A stretch of 64,000 nucleotides of DNA from Escherichia phage vB_EcoM-P3322. Positions 35,815-52,039 of the stretch are shown piece by piece. The notes under the pieces were generated by a model. That model was given only the letters and a program-made list of their open reading frames with translations, was not told where the DNA came from and made no database searches. The position numbers and the translations under genes are program-made. The stretch lies in sequence record PV191315.1. The stretch is one strand, 5' to 3'. Within the stretch, counting starts at the first letter, position 1. The number at the start of each line of letters is the position of its first letter.

Positions 35815-36214
35815 AAAAAGTTTCTCCTTCATCAAACAAGTTGGCAAGATTGTTCACGGCAATCTGGGTGGAAAGAAGACAACTGTTTGCAGACACATAA
35901 GCACGAGCTATTTTGTAAACATAGACTTTCGTATTACAATTATCTAGGATCGGAAGACTTTCGTCGATAGCATCTATAACACTAAACATCACATCTAAAA
36001 CTTTAATGGTGAGTGTTGTATTTGTATCTTCGTAACCTTTTTCAATCCGACCTGAATAGAAAGCATAGTCCTCAACAGTTCGTCGTTTAAACTGGCGCAT
36101 AAAATCGGAACCATCTGTAGCAGAATTGAACAAATTTTCAAAAAATACGTCCCATCCGGCAAAAAGGGCTGACAGCATGATTAAGTGATCTACAGATTCA
36201 TTTTCTTGTTTCAT
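35792..36214 (-). CDS. hypothetical protein
   Basis: RBS AGGAGAGG. Confidence 0.55.
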   Translation of the reverse strand: MKQENESVDHLIMLSALFAGWDVFFENLFNSATDGSDFMRQFKRRTVEDYAFYSGRIEKGYEDTNTTLTIKVLDVMFSVIDAIDESLPILDNCNTKVYVYKIARAYVSANSCLLSTQIAVNNLANLFDEGETFYDNRFEV

Positions 36215-36222
36215 ATCCTCTC

Positions 36223-36894
36223 CTATTTAATGTTCAGTCTGGCACACAAACGAGAAACAGTTTTAGCATCCCATTTACCACCACGTGCTGTTGCTATTTT
36301 CTTACTATTGAATTTTTCAGCAATAGTTTTGTAAGGGGTATTTAAATCTCTAAGGATCTCCAAGCGTTCACGGAATGTCTCTGCAAAAGCGTCTGCTTTA
36401 ACAGAATTGTATTCCATTTTTCCTTTTCTACGTGCAGCGGCAGTTTTAGGATTAGCACTGCCTAATAAAACACCTTTACTTTTTGCTACAGCAAGACCCT
36501 TTTTAATACGATCAGCAATACCTCTAACTTCTTGTTCAGCCAGAACAGACAGAAGCTGTATAACCATTTTATCTGCGTCTGGCATAATGGCTATCTTAAC
36601 ATCGATCATTTCTAGAAGAGTTGCTACGGAGGCGTTGTTACGACCCAAGCGGTCAACTTTAGCTACCAATAAAGTTGCTCCGGTAGCTTTACACATTTCA
36701 ACCGCTTTAACCAGTTCCTTACGTTGCTTCCAATCGCCCTTACCCGAATAGTATTCAGAAAATTGACCAATAACTTCCGCATCAGGCACAGAGTCTAAGA
36801 AGTAACGGATATCATTCTCTTGGCTCTCCATACCATATTGTGCCTCACCTTTTTTCTGTTTAGAAAGACGACTGTAAACAACAAACTTTTTCAT
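36223..36894 (-). CDS. serine recombinase (resolvase/invertase family)
   Basis: YSRLS (catalytic Ser region), VAKVDRLGRN, C-terminal HTH-like TARGGKW..TVSRL; ATG 36894 after AGGAGTGG. Confidence 0.75.
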   Translation of the reverse strand: MKKFVVYSRLSKQKKGEAQYGMESQENDIRYFLDSVPDAEVIGQFSEYYSGKGDWKQRKELVKAVEMCKATGATLLVAKVDRLGRNNASVATLLEMIDVKIAIMPDADKMVIQLLSVLAEQEVRGIADRIKKGLAVAKSKGVLLGSANPKTAAARRKGKMEYNSVKADAFAETFRERLEILRDLNTPYKTIAEKFNSKKIATARGGKWDAKTVSRLCARLNIK

Positions 36895-36914
36895 AACCAC
36901 TCCTAAACTATTGC

Positions 36915-36945
36915 TGTATTCTCACTTTACAAAACGAATAAACAC
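36915..36945 (-). promoter_or_regulatory. sigma70-like promoter for recombinase
   Basis: rc: TTGACA-17nt-TAAAGT. Confidence 0.45.
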
Positions 36946-36964
36946 TTGTCAAGGTATTTATTAT

Positions 36965-37177
36965 TTACAGCCATTCTACTCTTAAGCAGTATTCCTCGAC
37001 ATGTTGTTTACGCTTGTTTTTGTCTATGTAAGTGTATTCAACAAATGTCCCAAGATAGTCCTTGTCTACATTGTGTGGGCTATTGATTGGACATTTAGTA
37101 CGACAAACCCGTTGCCACTGACGAAGAATTACGGCTTTGTTTTTAGGATCAAAGGGATGAGGGTAATGTACCTTCAT
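36965..37177 (-). CDS. hypothetical protein
   Basis: RBS AGGAGG. Confidence 0.55.
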   Translation of the reverse strand: MKVHYPHPFDPKNKAVILRQWQRVCRTKCPINSPHNVDKDYLGTFVEYTYIDKNKRKQHVEEYCLRVEWL

Positions 37178-37501
37178 TCACGCCTCCTGTTTTAGTCGAA
37201 AAATATTTTGAATAACTAGAGATGTATAGTTATCACCTAGTCCCATAAGTTCTACTTCCAAGTTTCGAATATCCTCCACCGTAGGAGGATATGTTGGTAA
37301 AAATGCTTGAGCATTACCAGATCCAACTTCATTGCTGTAAGCAGTTGTAAAATTGTAAGATACAAAACATGAAACACCTTTTTGTCGGTACCCGATTAAT
37401 CGACGAATACACCAGATAAGAGCCAAACCTATGAGAACACCTCCTAAACCAGCTAACAAGAAGGATAAGTTCATAATAGCTTCGTTAACAACTGCTTCCA
37501 T
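37178..37501 (-). CDS. membrane protein
   Basis: RBS AAGGAG; TM segment LSFLLAGLGGVLIGLALIW. Confidence 0.6.
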   Translation of the reverse strand: MEAVVNEAIMNLSFLLAGLGGVLIGLALIWCIRRLIGYRQKGVSCFVSYNFTTAYSNEVGSGNAQAFLPTYPPTVEDIRNLEVELMGLGDNYTSLVIQNIFRLKQEA

Positions 37502-37511
37502 TCTTTTCTCC

Positions 37512-37811
37512 TTAGTTATGTAAACCCAAATGTGCTACAACTTCTCTACGATAAGACAACTGCATAGCGATTTTATAGCCAGGATGAAAACCATTTACAT
37601 CAATGTCATCAAACCAAATCTCAAACGAACCGTGCTTAAGAGTCATTAAGTTGATATACCATTCGATAATATAATGATCGTCAGCAATACCTTCGATGTA
37701 AAATTCTCGGCAACAGTGAGATAGGTCTTCACTCGTTTCACGTTTCCAGTCTTTGATAGCACCCTTCTCTTTGGCTTTATTCAGAATCTGGATCAGGTCT
37801 TCAACTTGCAT
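37512..37811 (-). CDS. hypothetical protein
   Basis: RBS AAGGAGAG. Confidence 0.6.
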   Translation of the reverse strand: MQVEDLIQILNKAKEKGAIKDWKRETSEDLSHCCREFYIEGIADDHYIIEWYINLMTLKHGSFEIWFDDIDVNGFHPGYKIAMQLSYRREVVAHLGLHN

Positions 37812-37864
37812 TTTCTCTCCTTTTGTGGTTAATCTTTATATTTTAAATATTGCACCGTTTTCTG

Positions 37865-38278
37865 TCAAATAGCCTCTTTCTCTAAAACAACTCTTTGGAT
37901 CACAACATCTTCAATGTTTGCCAAACAATGACCCAAAGTCAATCCCGCCTTGAAAGGTGCTTGTAGCTTGGATTCGGCTTCTACGCGAACAGAATGTTCC
38001 GCTCCGCACATGGTGTAATCTACACGGTAAACGTTTAAACCTAAGAACATAGATTCTTCTTCTTCACAACAAGGATTGAGTTCAGCCCAGTCCCAAGCAT
38101 CTCCTTCTAAAGCAAATGGAGTGTTGTAATTGAAGAAAGTGCAGCGCGGATATTCCCCGTTGAAAGAATCTTTCAGCAGAATATATTTCTTACCGTTTGC
38201 ATGGAAGAGTTCTCCTTTGATAACCTTACCTACAAGGATATCACTGTTAGTGGAACGGGTGCAAATAAACTTTTTCAT
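37865..38278 (-). CDS. hypothetical protein
   Basis: RBS AGAGGAG. Confidence 0.6.
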   Translation of the reverse strand: MKKFICTRSTNSDILVGKVIKGELFHANGKKYILLKDSFNGEYPRCTFFNYNTPFALEGDAWDWAELNPCCEEEESMFLGLNVYRVDYTMCGAEHSVRVEAESKLQAPFKAGLTLGHCLANIEDVVIQRVVLEKEAI

Positions 38279-38332
38279 GATTTTCTCCTCTTTGTTTCGA
38301 TGAGATGATTATGACAAAGACAGATCCTTCTG

Positions 38333-38659
38333 TCAACTATTTATTTCTTCTGCTACACGTTCTTTTACCCAGTTCACACGATCCACATTCAAATGACAAC
38401 GGCTTTTTTCCGCTTCTAAGGTGTACTTTCCAAAATTACTGTTGAAAGGCAACACCATAACCAAATCTTTGTGGTAGAACTGCTCATGCATTTCATCCAG
38501 TACGGGTTCGTATCGTTCGCTTTCACCCATATCGTAAAAATCATAGAGGTTCGAGCACAAACCTGTGCAACGGGTGAACGGTTCGCCTTCAGGAGCACCA
38601 GCTTCCAACCATGCCAAATACGTGCGGTAAAATGTTAATAGTTCTTCGCTCATTTCCAC
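38333..38659 (-). CDS. paralog family A member
   Basis: RBS GAAGGAG; FYRTYLAWLEAGAPEG...GLCSNL...PFN...HLNVDRVNWVKERV. Confidence 0.65.
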   Translation of the reverse strand: MEMSEELLTFYRTYLAWLEAGAPEGEPFTRCTGLCSNLYDFYDMGESERYEPVLDEMHEQFYHKDLVMVLPFNSNFGKYTLEAEKSRCHLNVDRVNWVKERVAEEINS

Positions 38660-38868
38660 TCTCCTTCATGATAGTAAACCTCAAAAGAATAGTAAGTGAA
38701 CATGCTCATTGTAACACCTGCCATTTCTGGATCAACGGAAGTGTTGTTATACATGTCAACTACTGCCTGACCCGCTGCTTTGGCATGTGCTGCCGAATCA
38801 CAAGCACAAACATCTTTCTCCCACGGAAACTTGCCATCATACTTAAGACGCACAATCCACATGATCAT
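38650..38868 (-). CDS. hypothetical protein
   Basis: Track ORF, translationally coupled. Confidence 0.5.
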   Translation of the reverse strand: MIMWIVRLKYDGKFPWEKDVCACDSAAHAKAAGQAVVDMYNNTSVDPEMAGVTMSMFTYYSFEVYYHEGEWK

Positions 38869-39092
38869 TCTTCCATCTCAAACCATTCAGGGAACACTTT
38901 GCGGAAGACCCGCGTGTTTTCTAAGAGAAATTCCAACTCTTTTTCCAAATCTGCGTTCCAACCGTTTATTTTAACACGGATTGCCAATGCACTTGCACGG
39001 CGACTCAATTCTTGACAGATTGGATCACGCAGAACTATTGAGTCATAAAACTGACAAACAGCCTCAAGTTCATACCAGTTATAATCCGACAT
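38865..39092 (-). CDS. hypothetical protein
   Basis: Track ORF, ATGA-type overlap. Confidence 0.5.
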   Translation of the reverse strand: MSDYNWYELEAVCQFYDSIVLRDPICQELSRRASALAIRVKINGWNADLEKELEFLLENTRVFRKVFPEWFEMEE

Positions 39093-39418
39093 TATTCATC
39101 CTCCTCTGCAATACGATCTCTTACCCAATTAATCCTGTCCACATTCAGGTGACATACCTCTGCATCTGATTCTAAGACATATGCATCGTAGTTCTCATTG
39201 AAGGGTAATTCTTGACTCAACCCTTTGTGGTAAAACTGTGCGTGCATTTCATCTGCCAAGGTTGTTATAAGGGGATTGTAGCCATCCGCGTGCACATAGT
39301 CGAATAAGTTGGCACACAAACCGCAATCCCGCCGAAAAGGTTTACCATCAGGAGCACCAACATCAATCCATGCTAGATAAATTTTATAAAACTCCATCAA
39401 CCTTGCGCTTGTTTTCAT
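39092..39418 (-). CDS. paralog family A member
   Basis: FYKIYLAWIDVGAPDG...GLCANL...PFN...HLNVDRINWVRDRI. Confidence 0.65.
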   Translation of the reverse strand: MKTSARLMEFYKIYLAWIDVGAPDGKPFRRDCGLCANLFDYVHADGYNPLITTLADEMHAQFYHKGLSQELPFNENYDAYVLESDAEVCHLNVDRINWVRDRIAEEDE

Positions 39419-39656
39419 TTAGCCACCTCGTTAGTTTTTCTTGCTCTTTGTTTGCGCGTTCTAAGCTTCTGAACTTTAAACAGAGGGAACGAGAATCCCT
39501 ACCCATGCACAAGCTTTCATCTAAGCTGTGCTCCCCAACCAACCAAAGAGAGTATGTTTGAACATCTAACCCATAGTTTCTGTCTTTCCATAATCTCACC
39601 CCAAGAACATCAAAAGGCGCTTCCGCGACTAAAGAAAGAAACCGATCTTTATTCAT
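39384..39656 (-). CDS. hypothetical protein
   Basis: RBS AAGGTGG. Confidence 0.45.
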   Translation of the reverse strand: MNKDRFLSLVAEAPFDVLGVRLWKDRNYGLDVQTYSLWLVGEHSLDESLCMGRDSRSLCLKFRSLERANKEQEKLTRWLNENKRKVDGVL

Positions 39657-39714
39657 ATTACACCACCTTGCTCACGTTGATAATGTACACCATACATAAA
39701 ATAAATGTCAAGGC

Positions 39715-39912
39715 TTATCGACACAGATGGTTGTAACGATCTGCTTTATCCTCTGCTTCAGCAAAGTCAGCAATCAAGGAAGTTTTGAGTTCTTCCAACT
39801 CTTTCACCCAAGAGTCGTAATCGTTCTGTGTTTCTCCAATAGTTTGGAGAAAACAATCGTCGTAGCCAATAGACATGGCTAACTCGATAATACGTTCCAG
39901 TTTTTCTTCCAT
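39715..39912 (-). CDS. hypothetical protein
   Basis: ATG 39912 after AAGGAGAG. Confidence 0.5.
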   Translation of the reverse strand: MEEKLERIIELAMSIGYDDCFLQTIGETQNDYDSWVKELEELKTSLIADFAEAEDKADRYNHLCR

Positions 39913-40274
39913 CACTTCTCTCCTTCTACACACTTCTGTTTAACATAGAAGTAAGCACCACGAGCAAGATACAAATCATGTTCAATATCGCTCACAGGAA
40001 AACCATCTGGATTTTTAAAGCCATCTTCTACAGCCAAAATGAGAGATCGTAAACTGATAGCTAACAACTCCATTTGATCTTGTAGTTTTCTATTTTCTGC
40101 GTAAAGGTTTTTGCATTTTTGTTCTGCATTTTTCCATTGTTCTAGTGCATGATCATAGCGGTGCATAAGAATAGCTTTTTCTTGTTCACGCTTAAAAGTT
40201 TCTTCACAAATGAAACCCGTGCCTAAACCAGTTTCTTCATCTTTAACAAATACTTCAACAAAATCTTTAGACAT
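39912..40274 (-). CDS. hypothetical protein (coiled-coil-like)
   Basis: ATG 40274 after AGGAGAT; track start 40394 overlaps next gene. Confidence 0.5.
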   Translation of the reverse strand: MSKDFVEVFVKDEETGLGTGFICEETFKREQEKAILMHRYDHALEQWKNAEQKCKNLYAENRKLQDQMELLAISLRSLILAVEDGFKNPDGFPVSDIEHDLYLARGAYFYVKQKCVEGEK

Positions 40275-40275
40275 A

Positions 40276-40539
40276 TTATCTCCTATTTGCTTTTGGATAC
40301 TCCCAACCCTCTGGGAGATCTTCTTTACACATCCACTCAAAAGGCCAGCGACAATAACTGTGCCACTTTCCATCGAGATACAAGCAATCTTCATCTACTG
40401 GTCCACAAGGGTTGATAACTACAACACACCCTTTCGCTCGCCAATATTGAACTATTTCAGGGTAAAAACAAGAAACGTCGGTCCACTCCCAAATACGCTC
40501 ATCATTCAAACGGTATGCTGCTGGCAATGTTTCTTCCAT
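40276..40539 (-). CDS. hypothetical Cys/Trp-rich protein
   Basis: RBS AGAGG. Confidence 0.5.
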   Translation of the reverse strand: MEETLPAAYRLNDERIWEWTDVSCFYPEIVQYWRAKGCVVVINPCGPVDEDCLYLDGKWHSYCRWPFEWMCKEDLPEGWEYPKANRR

Positions 40540-40543
40540 ATTA

Positions 40544-40990
40544 TTAAACCTCTGTCAAAGAGAAACGCCAATCCTTACTACTACCTACACCAAGGAAGAT
40601 ATAGTTTCCGGTACTAACGGAATATCTCCAAGCGGGAATCCAATCAGGAATCTCTGGCTTATGGCTGTAGCCATAACGCTCGCCACTCGAATCTGTTGCA
40701 ATATAATTAACAAATTCAGGAACCTCTAAAGTTTCACCTTGATACTCTACACGCTTGAAGCCATCTTCCACTTCTTTCTCACCTTCTACCAGACAAGCAA
40801 GAAGTTTGATGTGAGGGCAAGTGAAATCTTGTCCTGGATAACGTGAACGGATATCGGTTAACAATGCGATCACAGCATCCGATAACTCTTTATAATCCTC
40901 ATATCTTACAAATGTGCCTTCTGTCGGATCATCAGGACACAAACGCCAAGCATCGTTGCAGTTTACAGCATAATGTCGCACTTTAGTCAT
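40544..40990 (-). CDS. hypothetical protein
   Basis: RBS AGGGGG. Confidence 0.6.
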   Translation of the reverse strand: MTKVRHYAVNCNDAWRLCPDDPTEGTFVRYEDYKELSDAVIALLTDIRSRYPGQDFTCPHIKLLACLVEGEKEVEDGFKRVEYQGETLEVPEFVNYIATDSSGERYGYSHKPEIPDWIPAWRYSVSTGNYIFLGVGSSKDWRFSLTEV

Positions 40991-41000
40991 AAATACCCCC

Positions 41001-41399
41001 TTATCGTTGCGTACAATCAGCTTCTAGAGTAAGAACATTCGTTATTGTTTTATCATTTTTTAGAAATGCAAACCAAGCTAAAGTGTCTCGATACTCTGTG
41101 CGCATCATCACAACTTCAGTAGTGCCAATAAACTGTTGTGAACCATACATAGCACTACCATCTTTACTTTTTTCTCCTGTGTATTGCAGAATGCCACTCA
41201 TCAAAGCACCACCTGAATTTTTAAGGATAAAGGAGTTATCTTTATTAATGACAACAGAAGCCATTTTCTTAGGACCAGAAATCACTTCACCTTTCAGATT
41301 TTTAACAACCACATCTGACACACACTCATAAACTTGAGACGCATTTGCTGTTCCGAGTGATGCAATGAGTAACAATAAACCTACGATGATCTTTTTCAT
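41001..41399 (-). CDS. secreted/lipoprotein-like protein (signal peptide)
   Basis: RBS AGAGGAGAG; MKKIIVGLLLLIASLGTANA. Confidence 0.6.
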   Translation of the reverse strand: MKKIIVGLLLLIASLGTANASQVYECVSDVVVKNLKGEVISGPKKMASVVINKDNSFILKNSGGALMSGILQYTGEKSKDGSAMYGSQQFIGTTEVVMMRTEYRDTLAWFAFLKNDKTITNVLTLEADCTQR

Positions 41400-41494
41400 A
41401 TAAACTCTCCTCTTTATTTACCCGACGCGCCCCTGTTGGGCGGAAAGGGTTGTACGCAAAATTTTTAGCTCCAATCGTCGGGTGTCCCGACTCC

Positions 41495-41701
41495 TTACGC
41501 TTTTAATGTTTTAACAGAATGACAAGCTTTGCAAACCATAACCGGAACAAGTTCGTCTCCACTGTCCGCATAAATCACTGTTTTCTTCATTCTGCTACCA
41601 CATGAACAATACTCTGTATGATCCGCTGGAATATTAAATATTCCGTAATCACTTTCATACTGTTTCTTACATATGGACACTGCTTTTGTAAAACGAGACA
41701 T
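41495..41701 (-). CDS. small zinc-ribbon protein
   Basis: RBS GGAGTAGG; CSCGS...CKACHS. Confidence 0.5.
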   Translation of the reverse strand: MSRFTKAVSICKKQYESDYGIFNIPADHTEYCSCGSRMKKTVIYADSGDELVPVMVCKACHSVKTLKA

Positions 41702-41703
41702 AC

Positions 41704-41925
41704 CTACTCCGCAAGAACATTCACTTCGTCAGAGAAAAATACGTAATCACAACCTTCCCAAACATCTTCTTCAAACCACTCCCATCCCTCAACTTTGGAC
41801 ATTTCTTCTATCGTAACAAAGAATGTTGTCATATCATCGCTAACAAGATGCGCTTCAACAACAAAAGGAATCTGAACATTCTCAAAACCAACATAACCCA
41901 ATACATCACAAACTCTAATTTTCAT
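41704..41925 (-). CDS. paralog family B member
   Basis: RBS AAAGGAG; shares W.W...........DYVFF motif with 45957..46187. Confidence 0.55.
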   Translation of the reverse strand: MKIRVCDVLGYVGFENVQIPFVVEAHLVSDDMTTFFVTIEEMSKVEGWEWFEEDVWEGCDYVFFSDEVNVLAE

Positions 41926-41926
41926 A

Positions 41927-42115
41927 TTATGCTCCTTTGTAGATTATGTTGGTGCGTTCACACTCTGCCACCAGCAAGCGATTAGCAATGTTGTCCATAG
42001 GAACATCAATCTCTACGCTCCAGGCATTGATATACACTTCTTCAATCTTTGCTCCAAGCATTTGTGCGATCAGAGCAACAGCCCCAGCATATTCAAGTTT
42101 AATCTCAATTACCAT
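41927..42115 (-). CDS. hypothetical protein
   Basis: ATG 42115 after GAGGTG. Confidence 0.5.
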   Translation of the reverse strand: MVIEIKLEYAGAVALIAQMLGAKIEEVYINAWSVEIDVPMDNIANRLLVAECERTNIIYKGA

Positions 42116-42129
42116 TTTGCACCTCAAGG

Positions 42130-42330
42130 TTATTTATCTTGCTTGTATCTTACAAGGCGATCACACTCCAGGTCAAGAAATTTCTCCGCATTTCGTTCGT
42201 GTTTGAGCACAATACATTGTTCTTTCCAGTCTGTAGCTCTTTGCTGCGCTGCTCCTGGGTCAAAATCCCAAAGCCATGCCGCGAAAAGAACAACCATAAC
42301 AATTACTAAGAAACTAAACACTATTGGCAT
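42130..42330 (-). CDS. small membrane protein
   Basis: ATG 42330 after AGGAGGA; TM segment IVFSFLVIVMVVLFAAWLW. Confidence 0.5.
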   Translation of the reverse strand: MPIVFSFLVIVMVVLFAAWLWDFDPGAAQQRATDWKEQCIVLKHERNAEKFLDLECDRLVRYKQDK

Positions 42331-42635
42331 TGCACATCCTCCTGTGTAGCATGGTCTTTTACCCATTTTATACGGGCAGCATTCAAATGCAATAGCCCGT
42401 TTCTTTGTGCAAAATCATATTTAAACCAGTCTCCGTCATCAAACGGGTATTCTTCAGACAATCCTGCCTCACGGAATTGCATTTGCATTTCATAATTTAG
42501 ATCATCATAACCTCCAGTCCAAAGGTAGAGGCAACTACATAATCCTTTATCATGCCAGAAAGGATTATTATCTGGAGCACCAGCTAATAGCCAATTATGA
42601 TATGCCTGATAAAATTCTTTAAGTTCCTCTGACAT
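42321..42635 (-). CDS. paralog family A member
   Basis: RBS AGGAGG; FYQAYHNWLLAGAPDN...GLCSCL...PF...HLNAARIKWVKDH. Confidence 0.65.
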   Translation of the reverse strand: MSEELKEFYQAYHNWLLAGAPDNNPFWHDKGLCSCLYLWTGGYDDLNYEMQMQFREAGLSEEYPFDDGDWFKYDFAQRNGLLHLNAARIKWVKDHATQEDVQCQ

Positions 42636-42812
42636 TTAACCTCCTGTATATAGTGTTGAAAGATACACAGCAAAAGCATTCTCGGCTGTTTTCACCTCCT
42701 CTTCAAGATCTTCACGCTCTGCTGGCGTTAATGCATTCCGCACAGCAGCGTCTGCTTCTCGGATTTTTCTTACTAAACGTGAAACATCTTTCAGTTGTTG
42801 AAAAGTAGCCAT
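42636..42812 (-). CDS. small hypothetical protein (58 aa)
   Basis: Below track threshold; RBS AACAGGAGAAAG. Confidence 0.4.
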   Translation of the reverse strand: MATFQQLKDVSRLVRKIREADAAVRNALTPAEREDLEEEVKTAENAFAVYLSTLYTGG

Positions 42813-42827
42813 AGTCTTTCTCCTGTT

Positions 42828-43187
42828 TTAGTGAGTGTCGCGCCATTCGGCAATCTCTTCGGCTAAACGATCACAAGAATCGAAAGCCACTTTACCTTCG
42901 CCAGGGTAGTTCCAGAAGACACCCCGTGAATCTGTAATGTTTATATGATACTTGTCCCACATCTCTTTTGCAAGTGGTCGATCAACATATCCTTCAAAAT
43001 ATACTTCAGTTTCTGCTGAATATGGAGTGTAATCGCTGGCAGCAAAAGCGTTCTGGAAGATCACCATCACATTACGTGTTGTGCTTGGATGCATCAATTG
43101 GTGAAATTTTAACAATCTTCCGTTGATCCTAACAACATCTCCTTCAAACAAGGAGATATCTTTTACTTTACGAAATTCTCCGCTCAT
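42828..43187 (-). CDS. hypothetical protein
   Basis: RBS AAGGGGG. Confidence 0.6.
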   Translation of the reverse strand: MSGEFRKVKDISLFEGDVVRINGRLLKFHQLMHPSTTRNVMVIFQNAFAASDYTPYSAETEVYFEGYVDRPLAKEMWDKYHINITDSRGVFWNYPGEGKVAFDSCDRLAEEIAEWRDTH

Positions 43188-43196
43188 TTTACCCCC

Positions 43197-43388
43197 TTAA
43201 TACACATCTCCTACAAACCAGATTTCTGGATCGCCATACTGATCCTTCTCGTAAGATTTATAGACACTACAGCAATATTTCAAAACACCATCGACAAGGA
43301 TTGTTGATCTTTCTTCTGGAATCTCTGTGATTTCACCTTTGCGGGTTTCGAAGATGGTATCACCCTTTTCAATCAGTCTGATTTTCAT
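43197..43388 (-). CDS. hypothetical protein
   Basis: Track ORF. Confidence 0.5.
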   Translation of the reverse strand: MKIRLIEKGDTIFETRKGEITEIPEERSTILVDGVLKYCCSVYKSYEKDQYGDPEIWFVGDVY

Positions 43389-43587
43389 ATCGTACTTCCT
43401 TCAATGCGAGTAATGCATTTACCAGATTATCAACACCTTGATCATCCAGTGCGATAACATCGAAGTTAAACCCTGTGTCAGTTGGGACTTTACGTTTTAT
43501 GGTGTAATAGTCCCCTTCATGACGTTCAACATACACGTATGGGTAACTGCTGTTCGGATCATGTTTCACGCGAATAGATGTTTTCAT
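43369..43587 (-). CDS. hypothetical protein
   Basis: RBS AAGAGGAG. Confidence 0.55.
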   Translation of the reverse strand: MKTSIRVKHDPNSSYPYVYVERHEGDYYTIKRKVPTDTGFNFDVIALDDQGVDNLVNALLALKEVRYENQTD

Positions 43588-43602
43588 GTTTTGTTCTCCT
43601 CT

Positions 43603-43839
43603 TTAGTCAAACCAGTTGTATTCAGAAGGGTAACGAGCGTAGTTTGGCTTATACCCCAGCCTTTTCATCTTGACAGACATACGAGTGAAGCCAAAAGTTG
43701 TTTTGCCCTTAGACATAAACTTCTTCCCACTCTTCATTGGCTTCTTAGGGTCTTTGATCGTCTGGTGTAACGCTCGCGCAAGCCACAAAGTGTATGCGCT
43801 CGGCACTTGATTAACTTTCATCTTGTTACCTTTCATCAT
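43603..43839 (-). CDS. small basic protein
   Basis: ATG 43839 after GAGGT; Lys/Arg-rich. Confidence 0.5.
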   Translation of the reverse strand: MMKGNKMKVNQVPSAYTLWLARALHQTIKDPKKPMKSGKKFMSKGKTTFGFTRMSVKMKRLGYKPNYARYPSEYNWFD

Positions 43840-44135
43840 TTTACCTCGGACCAATCAATAGTGATCCACTCGTATGCCCCGTTCAGATCCATTTCTTTAT
43901 AAACAATAAGCCCACGCTCACGAAGAATTGCTACTGCTTCATCCATCCACTTCACCTGATTGTAGATCTGCTCTGGGTGGGTGGGAGAATTATTCAGACC
44001 AAAATCGGATGGCGTGAAATTTCTTGAAGAGTTTCCCGCTCGGGCTTCAGCAAAACATGTCTCGATCACTTCTTCAACAGGGAAATTGAAGGAAGCTTCT
44101 TTTGCAATACGGCGTAACTGTTCGGTCAGATTCAT
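43836..44135 (-). CDS. hypothetical protein
   Basis: RBS AAAGGAG. Confidence 0.6.
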   Translation of the reverse strand: MNLTEQLRRIAKEASFNFPVEEVIETCFAEARAGNSSRNFTPSDFGLNNSPTHPEQIYNQVKWMDEAVAILRERGLIVYKEMDLNGAYEWITIDWSEVK

Positions 44136-44162
44136 CTTATTCTCCTTTCGTTGTGCGAAACA

Positions 44163-44600
44163 TTATAACAGATCTAATGCTTTCAACTCTTCTTTCAATG
44201 ATTCAGGCAGGTCACATTCAATGTCAATCAGAGATAACAAGTGACCAACAATGCCTTCCAGATGTTGATACTCACTATAACTTATAAATTCAGAATTGTA
44301 AACAGAAACATCCTTAGTTTCTTTCACAACTTCCCCCGCAGACACGCACATAAAAAAGTTACGCTCTCCGCGAGCTAACAATATCTCCCAACTCCTGAAC
44401 GGATACTGTCCAGCTTCAATAATATCTCCACTGTCCAGTAAAGTCAATGAGCAAACAGACCCTGATTCACTAACATCTTCGACGCGGAAACAAGACCCTT
44501 CAATCAAAGCTGCCATTTTGAAATTTTCATCAGAGATCATAGAGAAAGCTTCACATGCAGCTTTACTTTTGAAACAATAAACAGCATTAACTTTAAACAT
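44163..44600 (-). CDS. hypothetical protein
   Basis: RBS AAAGGGGAA. Confidence 0.6.
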   Translation of the reverse strand: MFKVNAVYCFKSKAACEAFSMISDENFKMAALIEGSCFRVEDVSESGSVCSLTLLDSGDIIEAGQYPFRSWEILLARGERNFFMCVSAGEVVKETKDVSVYNSEFISYSEYQHLEGIVGHLLSLIDIECDLPESLKEELKALDLL

Positions 44601-44612
44601 AACATTCCCCTT

Positions 44613-45068
44613 TTAAACAAAAGATACGCCGATGGTAGCAACAACCAAACGTTTATAAACTTCAACCTCTTCTGTAGGATTAGCCATTTTATGCTCTGCT
44701 GCTTCTTTCAAAGCTTCTTCATAACTTTCAAATCCAGAAATACAGGTGTCATCAGTCATTACAACATACCACTCTTCTTTTGTTGTATCAACAGGTTCTT
44801 CTTGGGGTTTTCCACGACCACCGCGAATACCACCGTCAACAAAATAATCTATATGAGCAGAATTGATTATGTAACGATCCCCATCACTAGCAGTGATAAT
44901 ACCGTCTCTCCCTATCACAACAATTGACAAGATATTACCATTTGCATCAGTGCTCAACACCTCGAAAAAATTCTCTCCAATGATAGCAGCAATACTGTTA
45001 TCAAAGGTAGAATATAGTCGCATATAATCCTCATCCTGGAAACGGTAGACATGACCTTCTTTAAACAT
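44613..45068 (-). CDS. hypothetical protein
   Basis: ATG 45068 after GAAGGAG. Confidence 0.55.
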   Translation of the reverse strand: MFKEGHVYRFQDEDYMRLYSTFDNSIAAIIGENFFEVLSTDANGNILSIVVIGRDGIITASDGDRYIINSAHIDYFVDGGIRGGRGKPQEEPVDTTKEEWYVVMTDDTCISGFESYEEALKEAAEHKMANPTEEVEVYKRLVVATIGVSFV

Positions 45069-45161
45069 TGTATGCTCCTTCTTGTTCAAGAGTAAAAGGA
45101 ATGATCTCACCATAGCTGTATTGCATGGCATCCACTTCTGCTTCTGCACGTTGTGCTAGTT

Positions 45162-45254
45162 CTAATGTTGCACAGATCTTGTAAGGGACAGTGCTGCATT
45201 GGCTCCAGCCTGGGTATTCTTTGTTACTAAATATACAGTAGTTCCTTTATTCAT
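45162..45254 (-). CDS. small hypothetical peptide (30 aa)
   Basis: Strong RBS AGAGGAGAAAG; below track threshold. Confidence 0.25.
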   Translation of the reverse strand: MNKGTTVYLVTKNTQAGANAALSLTRSVQH

Positions 45255-45708
45255 AACTTTCTCCTCTTAGTTCATCATACCATTTCAAAGCGTCTTTTGG
45301 AAGCATACCAAAATCTTCTTTTAGTTCTTTTTCAATCTCTTCTTGCATTTCCATCAGCGTTTTCAGTTGACGGACTTTTTTGTGCATAGCCACATTCCTT
45401 TCATTAAGGTTTGTCACTACATTATTTGCACGACTTGGTGGAAATGACAAAGGTTTCACGGGAAGATAATCTTCGATATTATCTAGTGCGTTACGAAAAT
45501 TATGATCCAAGAAACGTACATCTACACGATTGTAATCGGCAGCTACAACAGTGAACACTTTAAACGGCACATTGGATAAAGTATGTTGCACATAGACAGT
45601 ACCCATATTGCCTTCAATTTTACTATTAACTTCCAGCAAACCTGTATGAGCACTAACATAATCGTGAACACATTGCACATAAGCTGCCAGTATAGTGAAT
45701 TGTCTCAT
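45247..45708 (-). CDS. hypothetical protein
   Basis: RBS GGGGAGG. Confidence 0.6.
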   Translation of the reverse strand: MRQFTILAAYVQCVHDYVSAHTGLLEVNSKIEGNMGTVYVQHTLSNVPFKVFTVVAADYNRVDVRFLDHNFRNALDNIEDYLPVKPLSFPPSRANNVVTNLNERNVAMHKKVRQLKTLMEMQEEIEKELKEDFGMLPKDALKWYDELRGESYE

Positions 45709-45953
45709 TTTCTACCTCCCCATAATGCTAACATTTTATTGAAAATGGAAACGCGTCGTGCGCGAGATGCCATATCATAATTCATTCTTTCCGTCTCTGC
45801 AAGAAATTGATCTACTGTAATCAACGCTTTTGTCTTCTCTTTCAGAGTTTGCATATTCATCCATTCACATTCAGAATACCAATTATCGAAATACAAACTA
45901 TCAAGAAGATCCATTGCTGCTTCGTTCTGCTGTGGTGTGATCATTGCACACAA
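45705..45953 (-). CDS. hypothetical protein
   Basis: Track ORF; start likely internal ATG. Confidence 0.5.
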   Translation of the reverse strand: MCAMITPQQNEAAMDLLDSLYFDNWYSECEWMNMQTLKEKTKALITVDQFLAETERMNYDMASRARRVSIFNKMLALWGGRK

Positions 45954-45956
45954 CCT

Positions 45957-46187
45957 TTAATAGACAATTTCATATTCGTGAGGAAAGAAAACATAATCTT
46001 CCCCTTCTCGTGCATCTATCTCGTCCCAAAACCATTCCTGCACTTCCATCATCTTCGAGAATCGCACATGAGCAAGCCCACTGTATTCCACCGTAGCTTC
46101 CAGCACAAGTGGAAATTTTGCATGTGCCAATCCTTTATAACCACCATCATTCTCAATACGAATTTTCATGCGTTTCATATTATGCAT
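45957..46187 (-). CDS. paralog family B member
   Basis: Shares W.W........DYVFF motif with 41704..41925. Confidence 0.55.
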   Translation of the reverse strand: MHNMKRMKIRIENDGGYKGLAHAKFPLVLEATVEYSGLAHVRFSKMMEVQEWFWDEIDAREGEDYVFFPHEYEIVY

Positions 46188-46389
46188 CCTTCAGACCCTT
46201 AATGAAATAACGACCAACCGGATTCCCTCGGAAGTATTCGTTAATGAAATCGATAACACACGTTTCACTACCTGTCACAACGGACGGTGCGAAGTTTCGG
46301 AACTGCACGAGTACACGACTTGCGTTAGCAAGGGTGTGCACACGATCAGTGTTAGCTAAATACAAGGATACAGTTTTCAAATTCTTCAT
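46180..46389 (-). CDS. hypothetical protein
   Basis: RBS GAGGAG. Confidence 0.55.
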   Translation of the reverse strand: MKNLKTVSLYLANTDRVHTLANASRVLVQFRNFAPSVVTGSETCVIDFINEYFRGNPVGRYFIKGLKDA

Positions 46390-46438
46390 TTCATCTCCTC
46401 ATTGGCTATCTGTTATGTCATCCATTATACAAACATCT

Positions 46439-46813
46439 TTATTCAAAGCAAACATTATTTGCATCTTCAATTCTGTCTTTCACCCATTGAAGACGTAACG
46501 TGTTGGTATGACACGCCAAGTTTATACACTCTGAAAGGTAATCCATGCAATCTGCATTGAACGGAAGATTGTAGTCCAGCCCTGCACATGTAAACTGTTT
46601 CCTCATTTCGTATTTCAAACTATCCAACAAACGATCACGCCATCTTTTATCTTCTTCTCTGGTTGTCTCACCAACAAAATCATCTACATAATCTACCAGA
46701 CAACCACATAAGCCACTCGTTGTGCGATTCATTGCAGGATAGTTGGCAATCCATGCTTTATAGAAGCGAAGCAATGTTGCACTACTCAACGGAATATTTT
46801 TACTCTCTTGCAT
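46439..46813 (-). CDS. paralog family A member (N-terminally extended)
   Basis: RBS GAGAGGAG; FYKAWIANYPA...GLCGCL...PFN...RLQWVKDRI. Confidence 0.6.
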   Translation of the reverse strand: MQESKNIPLSSATLLRFYKAWIANYPAMNRTTSGLCGCLVDYVDDFVGETTREEDKRWRDRLLDSLKYEMRKQFTCAGLDYNLPFNADCMDYLSECINLACHTNTLRLQWVKDRIEDANNVCFE

Positions 46814-48434
46814 GACAATCTCCTCTCATCGTTAGCCATCTTTCATGGCAATCATCAATCACCAACATCATACGATCAATCTCAGGGAATTACAATCGAA
46901 TTATCATAGGGGATTCCTATCAATTATCCCATATATACCGATTATTTTTGACACCCCACTCTTGTATAAAAAGTAACCCAAAATATCTACGGGGAGAGAT
47001 TATTTCGGGACACCCTGTTTCATGGCAATCATGGCAAGAATATCTAATAGAATCAATATCATATGGCAAAAATCATGACGCATACGTAAGAAGTGCTTAA
47101 CGCGAATTTTCGGGCCGTCAGGTCCACGCAGCGACAATTCCCAAATATCATGAGAATGAGAATAATTATCATTCGTATTCAATGACTTATGCAAGGCTCA
47201 TGCCAACATAGCGACAAGGTGGGCCACTTGATTATAAATCACACAAACACTTATTTATCAATAGGTTGGCAACTTCATCATATGACGGAACATTGTCAAC
47301 TGATCCCGCTCATGACAAGCAGACTATTATTTATATGAGAATGATTATTATTTAAACGTTTATTAACATAAAAATTAAAATAAATCAAGAATTTTCTGAT
47401 TTTATTTACGTTTAAGAGAAGATGCTCAACATCCTACCGGATCGCCGTTGGCAATCCTCGGATATTTACGCCCCCATGATTAAGGTTTATCTCTTTTCTT
47501 AGTGCTCAACATTCCCGCCCGTGGCGGTAACATTTCGCCCCCAAAATTATTGCTTTTTATTCTATTATGTGCATAGTGTGCAATGTATCGGAATGATGAT
47601 AATCATCCTCCCATTGCCCCCATAATTATTGCCATGCTAATGATTTCATCTTGTAATTACCACAATGATTATTGTTATTGCGCTAATGTTATGATCTTGG
47701 TAATTACATATAATGCTAATAATAAGCCAGCGCAATAAGTGTAAGCGTCATTACGCTTGCAATTATTGCAAGCTACGCAGTAACAAGAAATAACCATCAC
47801 CGATGGTTATGATTGTTGGGGTGTAGTTGGCTTATTATTAGCTCGCTATGTGTCCGGCATAGCGTGCTAATGATGATCCTGGGAATGATTCGTTTTGTAA
47901 TGATTTCATTCAGTCACTATTATGGCAATAGTTATTATTTTAATGGTTTCGTTTGTTATTGTTCGTTAGTTGGTTGTTTTGTCGTGTTATCGTTATCTTG
48001 CTTAGTATTCATCATGGTTTGATTGTTTGTCGTTATCAATCATCTTGCTATTATTCCTTTGATTATGATTAGTTTGCTTATTGTTTTAGGTTGTTGGTTA
48101 GTTAGTTGTTGCGAACTATTATCAACATTATAGTTATGCACTTATATTGCATAGATAAACATGGATAGATGATAATGGTTATCATTGAACTAGAAAAGAG
48201 GTAAAAGGGTGTTTTTGATGGTTTGTTGTTGGTTGTTGATCGATTTTAACCGCTATAAATGGCTCTCTAACAGCCTGTTACCCTGGGAGGTATGGTTATT
48301 CGTTTAATGGTTGATTAGCTCGATACCGCGATTTATTCAATTTTGTTCTGTGTCGGTTTTTCATAGGCGAAAGCTATCAACATTGTTCGGGCAAAAAGAA
48401 AGGGCGCTTGGTGCGCCCCTTGTTTTGTTGTCGC
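46814..48434. other. 1.6-kb ORF-poor region with iterons, palindromes and a GT-skewed tract; candidate origin/packaging/regulatory region
   Basis: No convincing ORF; direct repeats gctaatg..atcttg.taattac; perfect palindrome gcttgcaattattgcaagc; GT-rich low-complexity 47930-48130. Confidence 0.5.
48398..48429 (-). terminator. bidirectional hairpin terminator (copy 1 of AAGGGCGC-N5-GCGCCCTT)
   Basis: aaagggcgc-ttggt-gcgcccctt flanked by T/A runs. Confidence 0.6.
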
Positions 48435-49369: not shown

Positions 49370-49425
49370 TTTGTGGGCTTGCTGTATTGCTCGCCCTACG
49401 CAATAACTATAAGTTAACAGGAGAA
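49370..49425 (-). promoter_or_regulatory. PeSL-like unit (degenerate)
   Basis: gcccTACGcaataa core; weak stem gggc/gccc. Confidence 0.35.
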
Positions 49426-49435
49426 ATAAAGCAAG

Positions 49436-49669
49436 CTATTTTTTATAAAATTTTTCTGCTGTGATATTCTTCCCAGTAGGCTTAACCACTTGCAAGATCT
49501 TATCATGTGCCGAACGTCCAAAAGAGTAAGATCCGTACACGGTAAACCAATAATCCCCGTTCGGTTGAACGGTTACGGCGGCGTACGGTGTACCTCTTTC
49601 ATTATCCCCGATGAAGTGAGAAACATTACCGTTAACATTTGGTTTAGTGCTTTTAATTTGTTCGATCAT
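49436..49669 (-). CDS. hypothetical protein
   Basis: Track ORF preceded by PeSL-like unit. Confidence 0.6.
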   Translation of the reverse strand: MIEQIKSTKPNVNGNVSHFIGDNERGTPYAAVTVQPNGDYWFTVYGSYSFGRSAHDKILQVVKPTGKNITAEKFYKK

Positions 49670-49685
49670 GATATGACTCCTAAAT

Positions 49686-49748
49686 CAGGCGGGAAACATT
49701 CCCGCCCTACGTGATAAATGATAATGTAAGCGTGATCCGGTGTCAATA
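49686..49748 (-). promoter_or_regulatory. PeSL-like unit
   Basis: hairpin ggcgggaaacattcccgcc; rc TTGACA-17-TATCAT. Confidence 0.65.
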
Positions 49749-49887
49749 GGTAGGATTGTAAAGATTTGATAGTTTATCTCTTTGATGTTTTGTTGTTTGA
49801 TAGATGTTAGCTATCAATATATAGCGGGGTCGTCCGGTGATTATCTTCCCCTGCTCCCAGGTGCCGCCCGTTCAATAAGTATAACAA

Positions 49888-49913
49888 AAAACAGGACAAA
49901 AACAAGCCCTGTT
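49888..49913 (-). terminator. hairpin terminator (minus strand)
   Basis: aaacagg-acaaaaacaagc-cctgttt with T-run on minus. Confidence 0.45.
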
Positions 49914-49921
49914 TATTTATC

Positions 49922-50056
49922 TTAAAACCAGTTGCCAACCGTTTCCAATAGGTCACTGACTACCAGGACAACATTAATCAGCACATATTCAACCAGGAAG
50001 GGAATAAGCGCCAGCGTTGCTACTACGATCCCCATTGTGATGATTACCTTTCTCAT
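49922..50056 (-). CDS. small membrane peptide (44 aa)
   Basis: Below track threshold; ATG 2 nt after upstream stop; hydrophobic. Confidence 0.35.
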   Translation of the reverse strand: MRKVIITMGIVVATLALIPFLVEYVLINVVLVVSDLLETVGNWF

Positions 50057-50058
50057 GG

Positions 50059-50343
50059 TTAGCGGCTTACGTAAGCTTTACCGTTTACGGTCATCGGTAT
50101 GGCCTCAAGGTCTGGATCTTCCTTAAGGTCGCGTGCAAGCTCACCGCAGCGGATACCCTCGAATCCGTGGTATTCTGTCGCGCCGTCCTGGAAAGTTTTA
50201 GCGGCAAGGCATAGGCGATAATTAACACCGATCCGGTTTACCGCGTTGATATCGGTTAACGTGATGGATTCAGGCAAATCATTAGCCATTACAGGCGCGT
50301 TAATACCAACAACCAGGGCAACTACTGCGATCATCTTTTTCAT
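50059..50343 (-). CDS. small secreted protein (signal peptide)
   Basis: MKKMIAVVALVVGINAPVMA; PeSL-like hairpin upstream. Confidence 0.6.
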   Translation of the reverse strand: MKKMIAVVALVVGINAPVMANDLPESITLTDINAVNRIGVNYRLCLAAKTFQDGATEYHGFEGIRCGELARDLKEDPDLEAIPMTVNGKAYVSR

Positions 50344-50369
50344 GTGTCTATCCTCTTCCTATTGCGTTT

Positions 50370-50392
50370 AATGGGGGCGTTACCGCCCTGCT
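50370..50392 (-). promoter_or_regulatory. PeSL-like hairpin
   Basis: gggggcg-ttac-cgccc. Confidence 0.5.
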
Positions 50393-50398
50393 TATGGT

Positions 50399-50635
50399 TT
50401 ATTGATTGATGTTATAATGAAAATTATTTTCTTCAATAGCTTTTAAAATAAAAGCCGTGATCGCTTTCGTGTCTACTTGTTCGAACGTATCAGAATAGCA
50501 CCAATAATAATCATCCCCTACTTTCGGCGGGTAAACCTGGACAAGGAGATCGCCACCTGGTTGATCTATAAGCTCAACATGCAAGCCGGATGATTCAGCG
50601 GTTTTAACGGCGGTTAATACTGTTGCAATACTCAT
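50399..50635 (-). CDS. hypothetical protein
   Basis: Track ORF; hairpin upstream. Confidence 0.6.
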   Translation of the reverse strand: MSIATVLTAVKTAESSGLHVELIDQPGGDLLVQVYPPKVGDDYYWCYSDTFEQVDTKAITAFILKAIEENNFHYNINQ

Positions 50636-50652
50636 AATCTTTTCCTTTCTGA

Positions 50653-50672
50653 TGTGGGGCGTTGCCGCCCCT
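50653..50672 (-). promoter_or_regulatory. PeSL-like hairpin
   Basis: ggggcg-ttgc-cgcccc. Confidence 0.5.
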
Positions 50673-50679
50673 TTGTTGA

Positions 50680-50979
50680 TTAGATCGCTGTTTCCAGTAG
50701 TTCGGCTAACGTCTTACCGCCTGATAGTTGGTCTAACGTTTGCTCTTCTGGCAAGAAATTAGCTGATATTAATCCGACTTGATTTCCTTTGTGCCAATTA
50801 GCTTGACGGATGATTCCATCCTTTAAAGATTTTACCGCCATTGTGCAACCGTCGCCAAATGATTCATTTTTATGATCCATCACTTCATAAGCGCCCAGCT
50901 TGCTACTGTTAGGCACCATTAACGCGAATACATCACCAACAACCAGTTTTTCTACGGTAATAATAGCGATAGTTTCCAT
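50680..50979 (-). CDS. hypothetical protein
   Basis: RBS AGGAAAG; PeSL upstream. Confidence 0.6.
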   Translation of the reverse strand: METIAIITVEKLVVGDVFALMVPNSSKLGAYEVMDHKNESFGDGCTMAVKSLKDGIIRQANWHKGNQVGLISANFLPEEQTLDQLSGGKTLAELLETAI

Positions 50980-50985
50980 TTTACT

Positions 50986-51046
50986 TTCCTCATTATCGGC
51001 GGCACCATTGCCGCCCTACGTGGTAAATATTAGCACACTGGCGATC
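50986..51046 (-). promoter_or_regulatory. PeSL-like unit
   Basis: hairpin ggcggcaccattgccgcc; rc TTGACA at 51039-51044. Confidence 0.65.
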
Positions 51047-51060
51047 TGTGTCAATACTTT

Positions 51061-51447
51061 TTATTCAATATAAATCAAATTATCTTCACCAATGTAAGCC
51101 GACACGTTCGGCATAAACTTAGCTGCATTGGTTAGGCGGTTGGCTGTGTTAGTGGTGTATATTTCAGGGCGATCCCAAAAGCCTACGCCGTGACCGTTAC
51201 GGGTAAAATGTAAATCATTCCCGATCTGGTTGGCTGTTGCGCCGTCGCTCATTGCCTCAGAGATAGCGGCAAGATTAGCATTAATAAAGGCTGTTACATC
51301 CTGGGCGATCCGTTGATCTGCGCTAGGAGAAAAATCATAATCGTCTAAGTTATCAATAAAATTACCTTCATGATCCCTTGCTGATTCAGCAAAAATAAAG
51401 GCTTCTTTATAGCCGTTGATGATTTCAATAATGATTTCTGTTTTCAT
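51061..51447 (-). CDS. hypothetical protein (conserved HFTRNGHGVGFWDR motif)
   Basis: Track ORF, 128 aa. Confidence 0.6.
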   Translation of the reverse strand: MKTEIIIEIINGYKEAFIFAESARDHEGNFIDNLDDYDFSPSADQRIAQDVTAFINANLAAISEAMSDGATANQIGNDLHFTRNGHGVGFWDRPEIYTTNTANRLTNAAKFMPNVSAYIGEDNLIYIE

Positions 51448-51668
51448 GCTGTACGCTCGACAATAATAATAGTTTGCGGGATCTCGTTTTCTACTACTAA
51501 CAAGGCTTTTTTCTGTGTGATAGATATTTTAACACGTTGTAAAGTAGCGGTAAAATCTTTCATTTCATTATGCGCGGATTTAGTACAATGCCAGATCTCA
51601 GGCTTACCAACTTGTAAGCCGCGTAAAAATTCCGTTTTGCCTGTTTTGTTCGTGATCATTTGTTTCAC
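51444..51668 (-). CDS. hypothetical protein
   Basis: Track ORF, overlaps neighbours. Confidence 0.55.
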   Translation of the reverse strand: MKQMITNKTGKTEFLRGLQVGKPEIWHCTKSAHNEMKDFTATLQRVKISITQKKALLVVENEIPQTIIIVERTA

Positions 51669-51669
51669 C

Positions 51670-51774
51670 TTAACCGATACCGTGGGAAGATAGGATCATA
51701 TTAGCCATAGTTGCAACTACTCCAACCGATAACGCCAGGCCAACCACTGCAACCGTGAAAATTTTCTCTAACAT
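51670..51774 (-). CDS. small single-TM peptide (34 aa)
   Basis: ATG 51774 after GAGGGTAG, downstream of PeSL; track start 51873 reads through the hairpin. Confidence 0.45.
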   Translation of the reverse strand: MLEKIFTVAVVGLALSVGVVATMANMILSSHGIG

Positions 51775-51790
51775 GATTCTACCCTCATTA

Positions 51791-51856
51791 ATGGGCGTTG
51801 CACCATTGCCCCGCCCTACGTAATACACTTTACTAGATAACAAATTATTGTCAAGC
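51791..51856 (-). promoter_or_regulatory. PeSL-like unit
   Basis: hairpin gggcgttgcaccattgccccgccc; rc TTGACA at 51849-51854. Confidence 0.6.
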
Positions 51857-51857
51857 T

Positions 51858-51995
51858 TTATTTTACTTCCCAAACGGAAAATTCGCTGCCTGTTGGGATC
51901 ATTTTTTTAATCTTGTTTGCTGCCGCTACCAGGTCAACGGCTTGTACTGTAATAATATAACCAATTGTCGAGGCTGTTGCGTTGAAAGTTTTCAT
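51858..51995 (-). CDS. small hypothetical protein (45 aa)
   Basis: Below track threshold; RBS AAAGGG; perfect palindrome upstream. Confidence 0.35.
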   Translation of the reverse strand: MKTFNATASTIGYIITVQAVDLVAAANKIKKMIPTGSEFSVWEVK

Positions 51996-52012
51996 TATAT
52001 TGCCCTTTAATA

Positions 52013-52034
52013 CAGGCGGGATTAATCCCGCCTT
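52013..52034 (-). promoter_or_regulatory. perfect palindromic hairpin
   Basis: ggcgggattaatcccgcc. Confidence 0.5.
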
Positions 52035-52039
52035 TTTGA

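Follow-up and report, generated by a model that had tools for sequence, protein, structure and literature searches.

Two small genes on the minus strand of Escherichia phage vB_EcoM-P3322 (PV191315.1), referred to here as copy A and copy B, encode proteins that sequence comparison identifies as true paralogs, similar along their whole length. Both lie in the 64,000-nucleotide stretch of this genome that was analyzed (the window), and both belong to a family of small acidic proteins for which a five-stranded β-barrel fold is predicted with high confidence. The two are very probably functional paralogs that diverged long ago. An earlier note, made from the letters of this DNA alone, had pointed to the genes as a paralogous pair carrying a W.W...DYVFF motif and had taken them as further evidence of repeated duplication in this block; the results described below uphold the paralogy, whereas the motif and the duplication history have to be revised in part. 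The two genes are as follows.

41704..41925, minus strand: copy A, 73 amino acids (aa), a stand-alone member of phrog_15322 with a net charge of −14 (open reading frame (ORF), Shine-Dalgarno sequence, profile match, ratio of nonsynonymous to synonymous substitution rates (dN/dS), AlphaFold2 model)
45957..46187, minus strand: copy B, 76 aa as first read, a member of phrog_15322 with a net charge of −5 (ORF, profile match, dN/dS); probable start at 46178, giving 73 aa

Homology, Coding Status and Predicted Fold of the Pair

Copies A and B align by BLASTP over 71 residues with 37% identity and 54% positives (E = 3e-13). When the two proteins were compared by phmmer with the 1065 six-frame ORFs of at least 30 aa in the window, the partner was the sole match (E = 2e-10 to 7e-10) and the next match had E > 1; an all-against-all BLASTP comparison of the window ORFs again recovered A and B as an isolated pair, and neither search revealed a third copy among the six-frame ORFs. 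Against the phrog_15322 profile, residues 1–73 of copy A match positions 1–73 (E = 3.3e-44) and residues 7–76 of copy B match positions 1–72 (E = 2.1e-41), with weaker matches of the two proteins to phrog_13367 (E = 4e-7 and 4e-9). Because the BLASTP, phmmer and full-length phrog_15322 matches all extend past the motif, the homology concerns the whole protein and is significant well beyond the short segment that first drew attention. The core positions P20, Y11, V37, Y61, F63, and E67 (copy A numbering) are kept in both copies, and at position 19, where the family core has F, copy A carries I.

Both ORFs are present on the minus strand at the coordinates first reported, with EGWEWF followed by DYVFF in copy A and QEWFWD followed by DYVFF in copy B, and their starts are 4.26 kb apart, in agreement with the “about 4 kb” of the earlier note. 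Only the second half of the proposed motif is characteristic of the family, however. The DYVFF..E part includes Y61, F63, and E67, which are nearly invariant. The W.W part is not a family signature, because the same site reads CEI in the copy A orthologues of phages PsgM04F and phiWec188, which share 73% identity with copy A, and because the two positions concerned (48 and 50) are aromatic in only ~70% of members.

Copy A is preceded by an AAGGAG Shine-Dalgarno sequence 7 nt upstream and forms a TAAtATG junction with the preceding gene. The lengths of 73 and 76 aa given at first are correct as ORF lengths; the 76-aa start of copy B is less likely than a downstream one. The copy B ORF contains three in-frame ATGs, the second of which, at 46178, begins MKRMKIRI and yields 73 aa and 222 nt, as in copy A. 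The true start is probably 46178, because it forms the same TAAtATG junction as copy A, gives the same 222-nt length, and corresponds to the start of a 73-aa relative (P0008, 66% identity to copy B) that begins MKSMKIRI. Comparison with the PsgM04F and phiWec188 orthologues (71–74% identity) gave dN/dS values of 0.12–0.16 for copy A and 0.14–0.16 for copy B, with dS near saturation. Thus, the ribosome-binding sites and tight operon packing of both copies, together with these ratios, indicate that both are real genes under purifying selection.

A word-indexed search recovered close relatives only, whereas a profile search of 1.84 billion representatives recovered 48 clusters at E < 1e-3. Two large proteins from the latter search (P0040 and P0041) were rejected as spurious partial matches in Ig-repeat proteins. 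The domain comprises ~70 residues with the consensus MKIKLLNDGGYxGLxxVxFPVxVEA...V......G-aromatic-x-aromatic...D...G..YxF...EVEVve. It occurs alone in the majority of members, as two domains per ORF in others (P0029, P0037, and P0019), and, in a fused form exemplified by Klebsiella phage KP2025, as a barrel joined by a linker to a C-terminal helical module of ~50 residues ending in KMIEEGV (phrog_26590). This helical module is absent from the window as a separate gene (best E = 0.3–2); a DLL..SL..YSEC segment in the nearby gene g45705 resembles it by eye, and g45705 was rejected as its counterpart since the likeness does not score. Distant members also match both the phrog_15322 and phrog_13367 profiles. 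Thus, both window proteins are assigned by profile comparison to phrog_15322, a family related to phrog_13367 that lacks a Pfam model: Pfam gave no match at E ≤ 10 for either copy and none for the 44-member alignment or the fused relatives, and among the 44 members the best Pfam relative was SH3_KIN17_C, found for one member at E = 0.17, so that Pfam SH3-clan and KOW profiles do not place the family. Sequence searches of the PDB with the pair, the 44-member alignment, and the fused relatives found no relative, and PADLOC gave no match at E ≤ 1 for copy A, copy B, or the neighboring genes of family A described below.

AlphaFold2 run on the 44-sequence alignment gave a model with a predicted local distance difference test (pLDDT) score of 95.5 and a predicted template modeling (pTM) score of 0.82; prediction from five close sequences reached a pLDDT of only 52.8, and the diverse homologues from the profile search were needed for a confident model. 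The predicted strands span residues 2–5, 21–28, 34–38, 60–64, and 68–72, with a short helix at 39–42. The 17-residue loop 43–59, which holds the W.W segment and follows the pattern G-aromatic-x-aromatic...D...G, is confidently placed although it has no regular secondary structure. With high confidence, therefore, the domain is modeled as a five-strand β barrel. Its topology may be called loosely SH3-like; it contains a long insert, and no solved structure comes close to it. Each of the 44 domains carries a net negative charge (median −6.5, range −15 to −1, median isoelectric point 4.5), copies A and B carrying −14 and −5, respectively. The conserved polar positions E24, D54, E67, and E69 are acidic, and the first three of these are acidic in 84–100% of members.

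The genes themselves are not new: over 100 deposited phage genomes list them as hypothetical proteins, and they are grouped in PHROGs. The present analysis adds a confident fold model, a definition of the family, its acidity and architectures, and the evolutionary pattern considered next.

Relationship of the Two Copies and the Duplication Question

The comparison of the two loci involves the following neighbors, of which the family A genes are paralogs of one another.

46439..46813, minus strand: family A member (phrog_2510), second gene upstream of copy B and the first past an ORF-poor stretch (listed for context)
46180..46389, minus strand: g46180, 69 aa, phrog_6496, between family A and copy B; dissimilar to the gene upstream of copy A
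42321..42635, minus strand: family A member (phrog_2510), third gene upstream of copy A (listed for context)
41927..42127, minus strand: g41927, 66 aa, phrog_26355, directly upstream of copy A (gene-order comparison)

As the earlier note had stated, the pair is interleaved with family A. The Phapecoctavirus-type relatives that were compared keep two gene orders, family A - g46180 - B and family A - (g42130) - g41927 - A, and g41927 travels with copy A (Mt1B1_P17, SF1-1, phiWec188, and PsgM04F). This arrangement could reflect a recent segmental or tandem duplication in which the barrel gene and a family A gene were copied together as a module and then drifted. Each barrel copy sits downstream of a family A gene with one or two genes between, the flanking family A genes (30% identity) are about as diverged as the pair (37%), the TAAtATG junction is common to both copies, and Shigella phage SF1-1 demonstrates that B-type genes can come to stand in tandem at the locus, whether they arose there or were assembled. 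Nevertheless, we consider such a recent event improbable. The DNA identity between A and B is ~53%, too low for recent segmental duplicates, and the flanking genes speak against duplication en bloc: neither the upstream neighbors (g46180 and g41927) nor the downstream neighbors (g45705 and g41495) resemble each other at E ≤ 100. Moreover, both copies have nearer relatives elsewhere, in metagenomes and other phages. Copy A is closer to P0005 (56%), P0007 (47%), and P0009 (44%) than to copy B (37%), and copy B is closer to P0008 (66%), P0010 (50%), and P0011 (49%) than to copy A. The two fell together in a clade of eight or fewer taxa in one of 200 neighbor-joining bootstraps, in a tree whose deep nodes are weak, as expected from 70 sites. 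Copy A is also lacking in Justusliebigvirus. Finally, the tandem B-type genes of SF1-1 share 60 and 51% identity with copy B and 53% with one another, and the second comes nearest to the type found in Justusliebigvirus muut (61%), which fits recombination better than copying in place.

Several further features point to exchange at these loci. Phage muut carries only a B-type gene (52–53% identity) next to a family A gene that is 96% identical to its counterpart, a pattern suggestive of mosaic replacement at this locus; more generally, B-type alleles of 51–71% identity stand beside this 96%-identical neighbor. The number of copies ranges from one to three among close relatives: SF1-1 has three (two B-type genes and copy A), and several Phapecoctavirus records have A and lack B. 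Copy number thus shifts easily in this gene family. In P0024, a metagenomic relative of copy B, an in-frame fusion joins the N-terminal half of a B-type protein with the C-terminal part of a protein of the phrog_3710 type. The 178-aa ORF at 44613–45149 of the window appears to be a phrog_3710 member, and the fusion implies a deletion of ~1 kb in the genome of P0024, which is evidence of deletion or recombination in the block. A second metagenomic relative, P0006, is a copy B allele with its last eight residues frameshifted.

Taken together, these comparisons describe the pair as an old paralogy, or as two separate acquisitions, in a recombination-prone accessory region, and not as the product of a recent local duplication. 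Of the earlier proposal of “repeated duplication in this block,” recurrent change in copy number therefore stands, and recent duplication within the block does not, given the ~53% DNA identity and the unrelated neighbors.

Genomic Setting and Distribution of the Barrel Gene

The window derives from a Phapecoctavirus-type E. coli myovirus with ~97% identity to Mt1B1_P17. The 6 kb around the pair matches over 40 Phapecoctavirus-type genomes (Stephanstirmvirinae), including Mt1B1_P17, ESCO5, and phAPEC8_ev052, at 96–98% identity; in these genomes, all genes beneath the match are annotated as hypothetical proteins. A plus-strand arm (1–30 kb) contains nucleotide-metabolism and replication genes, among them those for the two subunits of ribonucleotide reductase and for an exonuclease subunit of DNA polymerase. 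The minus-strand arm (30 to ~62 kb), which holds both copies, consists almost throughout of small ORFs, and its single ORF of at least 220 aa lies mid-arm among the small genes.

36223-36900, minus strand: serine recombinase/DNA invertase, 225 aa, phrog_125; sole ORF of at least 220 aa between 30 and 61.7 kb

Outside the phage subfamily, the barrel gene was found in varied surroundings. On a 43-kb contig it follows a divergent helix-turn-helix regulator and precedes PD-(D/E)XK, HNH, single-stranded DNA-binding, and DNA polymerase A genes; a lambdoid prophage of Providencia carries it (P0071) between Rad52/SSB recombination genes and int; and an 8-kb contig has a tandem-domain barrel ORF among small genes. 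When these three loci (L006, L007, and L008) were compared with the whole window, the barrel gene was the sole ORF in common. Sixteen further viral contigs, found with a 12-sequence subset of the alignment, carry the gene, and several of them have two to four members side by side (L017, L019, and L026). One of these, L017, resembles Pectobacterium phage PEAT2 and Klebsiella phages of 48–49 kb, and its barrel genes follow the primase. The gene is thus distributed among large virulent myoviruses, phages of 40–50 kb, and a lambdoid prophage, with small non-structural genes around it in every case, in phages of Enterobacterales and related hosts, and with no conserved phage partner gene. By these comparisons, the barrel gene moves on its own, as a single-gene unit, from phage to phage, and arrays of several copies are found again and again in phages unrelated to one another.

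Family A has six copies on the minus strand of the window (at ~34174, 35452, 38336, 39095, 42324, and 46442; span 34174–46825). It adjoins the barrel genes at five of five Stephanstirmvirinae loci and at none of the 21 other loci, so that the synteny proposed for checking in the earlier note holds within the subfamily and fails outside it; the absence from the other loci therefore marks the interleaving as lineage-specific and not as a general functional pairing. The six paralogs are ~105–125 aa long, share 27–54% identity, and have an invariant G-L-C motif together with P-F and R..WV; neither Pfam nor the PDB yielded a relative. Their number varies among relatives, PsgM04F having three in tandem before copy B.

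Other features were noted near the two genes. Downstream of copy A, two minus-strand genes (41001–41399 and 41495–41701) belong to PHROG families without an assigned function. Their products are one protein of 68 aa, whose two Cys pairs (CSC...CKAC) look like a zinc ribbon by eye, and one of 132 aa that begins with a hydrophobic segment resembling a signal peptide. Just upstream of the operon carrying copy B lies an ORF-poor stretch of ~1.5 kb (46900–48430), in which no Rfam family and no tRNA was detected and at whose edge there is a strong terminator-like hairpin (48421–48399, minus strand). A 20-nt box, ATGATTGCCATGAAAsAkGG, occurs twice on the minus strand, at 46855–46836 and at 47032–47013, the latter copy overlapping a promoter-like site. 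Phage muut has a similar gap with an annotated repeat region.

Possible Function and Comparison with Known Systems

Several properties of the family are firm: the protein is a small, uniformly acidic barrel, predicted to be stable; it can be dispensed with, and its copy number varies; and its alleles evolve fast under purifying selection. It is tempting to speculate that the barrel protein serves as an accessory factor, one whose expression probably precedes that of the late genes (a timing suggested by gene position only) and that would bind a host protein stoichiometrically, either a target of host takeover or a component of an anti-phage defense. Binding might occur through the conserved aromatic and acidic face of the modeled loop, and copies A and B may have diverged in target or allele specificity so that they are not redundant. 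In the relatives fused to the KMIEEGV module, the barrel could serve as the recognition part and the helices as an oligomerization or effector part. This reading was judged to fit best because it accommodates the acidic barrel, the conserved loop, the setting among small non-structural genes, the turnover, the single-gene mobility, and the lack of a conserved partner. As a mechanism, host-protein binding for takeover or counter-defense is nevertheless a reasoned guess, to be held tentatively; joined with the much firmer evolutionary account, the explanation as a whole falls somewhat short of an even chance, an assessment that is a compromise between its two parts.

Some observations weigh against the proposed host-protein binding. 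Acidity and rapid turnover are compatible with many other roles; none of the sources searched contained a named or characterized homologue; and the literature on the PHROG identifiers, on Phapecoctavirus paralogs, and on SH3-like anti-defense proteins yielded nothing specific. In addition, the 18 consensus promoter-hairpin cassettes of the 49–59 kb block do not occur in the block of A and B, for which the timing of expression is suggested by position alone. These intergenic cassettes of ~75 nt each, found at 49391–59138 among minus-strand genes (0.44 expected by chance), consist on the minus, coding strand of a near-consensus sigma-70 promoter (TTGACA, a spacing of 16–17 nt, and a TATAGT-like element) followed by the GC hairpin GGCGGCA-ATGG-TGCCGCC; none was found in the 30–49 kb block. 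They may resemble the promoter-early-stem-loop cassettes known from T4-type phages. The apparent plus-strand “paralog ORFs” at 50891, 55947, and 58876 and at 56111, 57522, and 59037 are translations of the cassette repeat.

Other functions can be weighed against the same evidence. The barrel proteins might be partners or adaptors of a phage-encoded protein, for example family A or adjacent small genes, and the pair would then supply two cognate modules to a two-component function internal to the phage. The conserved gene orders around A and B in Phapecoctavirus-type relatives would be in keeping with such a role, as would the covalent joining of the barrel to a helical module in other phages, which implies cooperation with another polypeptide segment. 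It is unlikely, however, since family A is missing from all 21 barrel loci outside Stephanstirmvirinae, no other window ORF is common to L006–L008, six family A genes face two barrel genes in the window, and the helical module has no counterpart there, g45705 included. Mimicry of nucleic acid, by which restriction, recombination, or a defense nuclease would be blocked, is a special case of host-protein binding; Ocr, ArdA, Arn, and Gp5.9 are known mimics of this kind, and the extreme charge of copy A (−14 in 73 residues), the uniform acidity of the family, and the accessory, fast-evolving nature of the gene are in its favor, yet this specific form seems quite improbable. A nucleic-acid-binding regulator of the KOW, Sm, or OapB small-barrel type, acting on transcription, translation, or RNA stability, is very improbable, because the acidic charge conflicts with a KOW-like role in binding nucleic acids.

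A broader version of the host-protein binding hypothesis is that the family constitutes an unrecognized, widespread domain of acidic SH3-like phage inhibitors directed at host immunity or at a core host machine, a possibility that we regard as doubtful but worth stating. If it were true, an arms race over target variants would explain the lineage-specific expansions (two copies in this phage, three in SF1-1, and elsewhere tandem arrays or tandem domains), and the relatives fused to the KMIEEGV helices would correspond to a second functional state. The profile is typical of host-takeover or anti-defense factors, which makes this a candidate family in therapeutic-type coliphages (phAPEC8-like and phi92-like). 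Should a target be found, a family without a Pfam model would gain a function; otherwise, it would be one of many small phage ORFs.

Among known groupings, phrog_15322 and phrog_13367 represent the same family as both window proteins and bear no functional annotation. In the public record of SF1-1 (PQ571307.1), the copy A orthologue is labeled “protein ea8.5,” a name that was rejected because neither sequence nor fold supports it: the profile finds no solved Ea8.5-type PDB chain, and none appears among the fold-search matches. The same record contains other implausible names, such as “RNA ligase” (132 aa), “putative capsid protein” (64 aa), and “putative ABC transporter ATP-binding protein” (70 aa). 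The barrel protein shares with lambda Ea8.5 its character as a small accessory protein, and the distant member P0071 occupies in the Providencia prophage roughly the site at which lambda carries its ea genes. The Ea8.5 homologues, however, are helical, zinc-binding proteins, whereas the barrel model is all-β. In fold, the model may be compared with SH3-like small barrels, such as SH3 itself, the KOW domains of OapB and Spt5, the C-terminal domain of retroviral integrase, and PsaE. Among phage proteins, T4 MotB is an early protein whose N-terminal domain is predicted to be KOW/SH3-like (PMC7827196), and the barrel family may resemble it as a small SH3-like barrel from the non-essential small-gene region of a large virulent coliphage. 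By contrast, as far as a comparison by description goes, MotB has two domains, the C-terminal one an OB fold, binds DNA, and acts together with H-NS, whereas members of the barrel family are acidic and, in the form found here, consist of a single domain.

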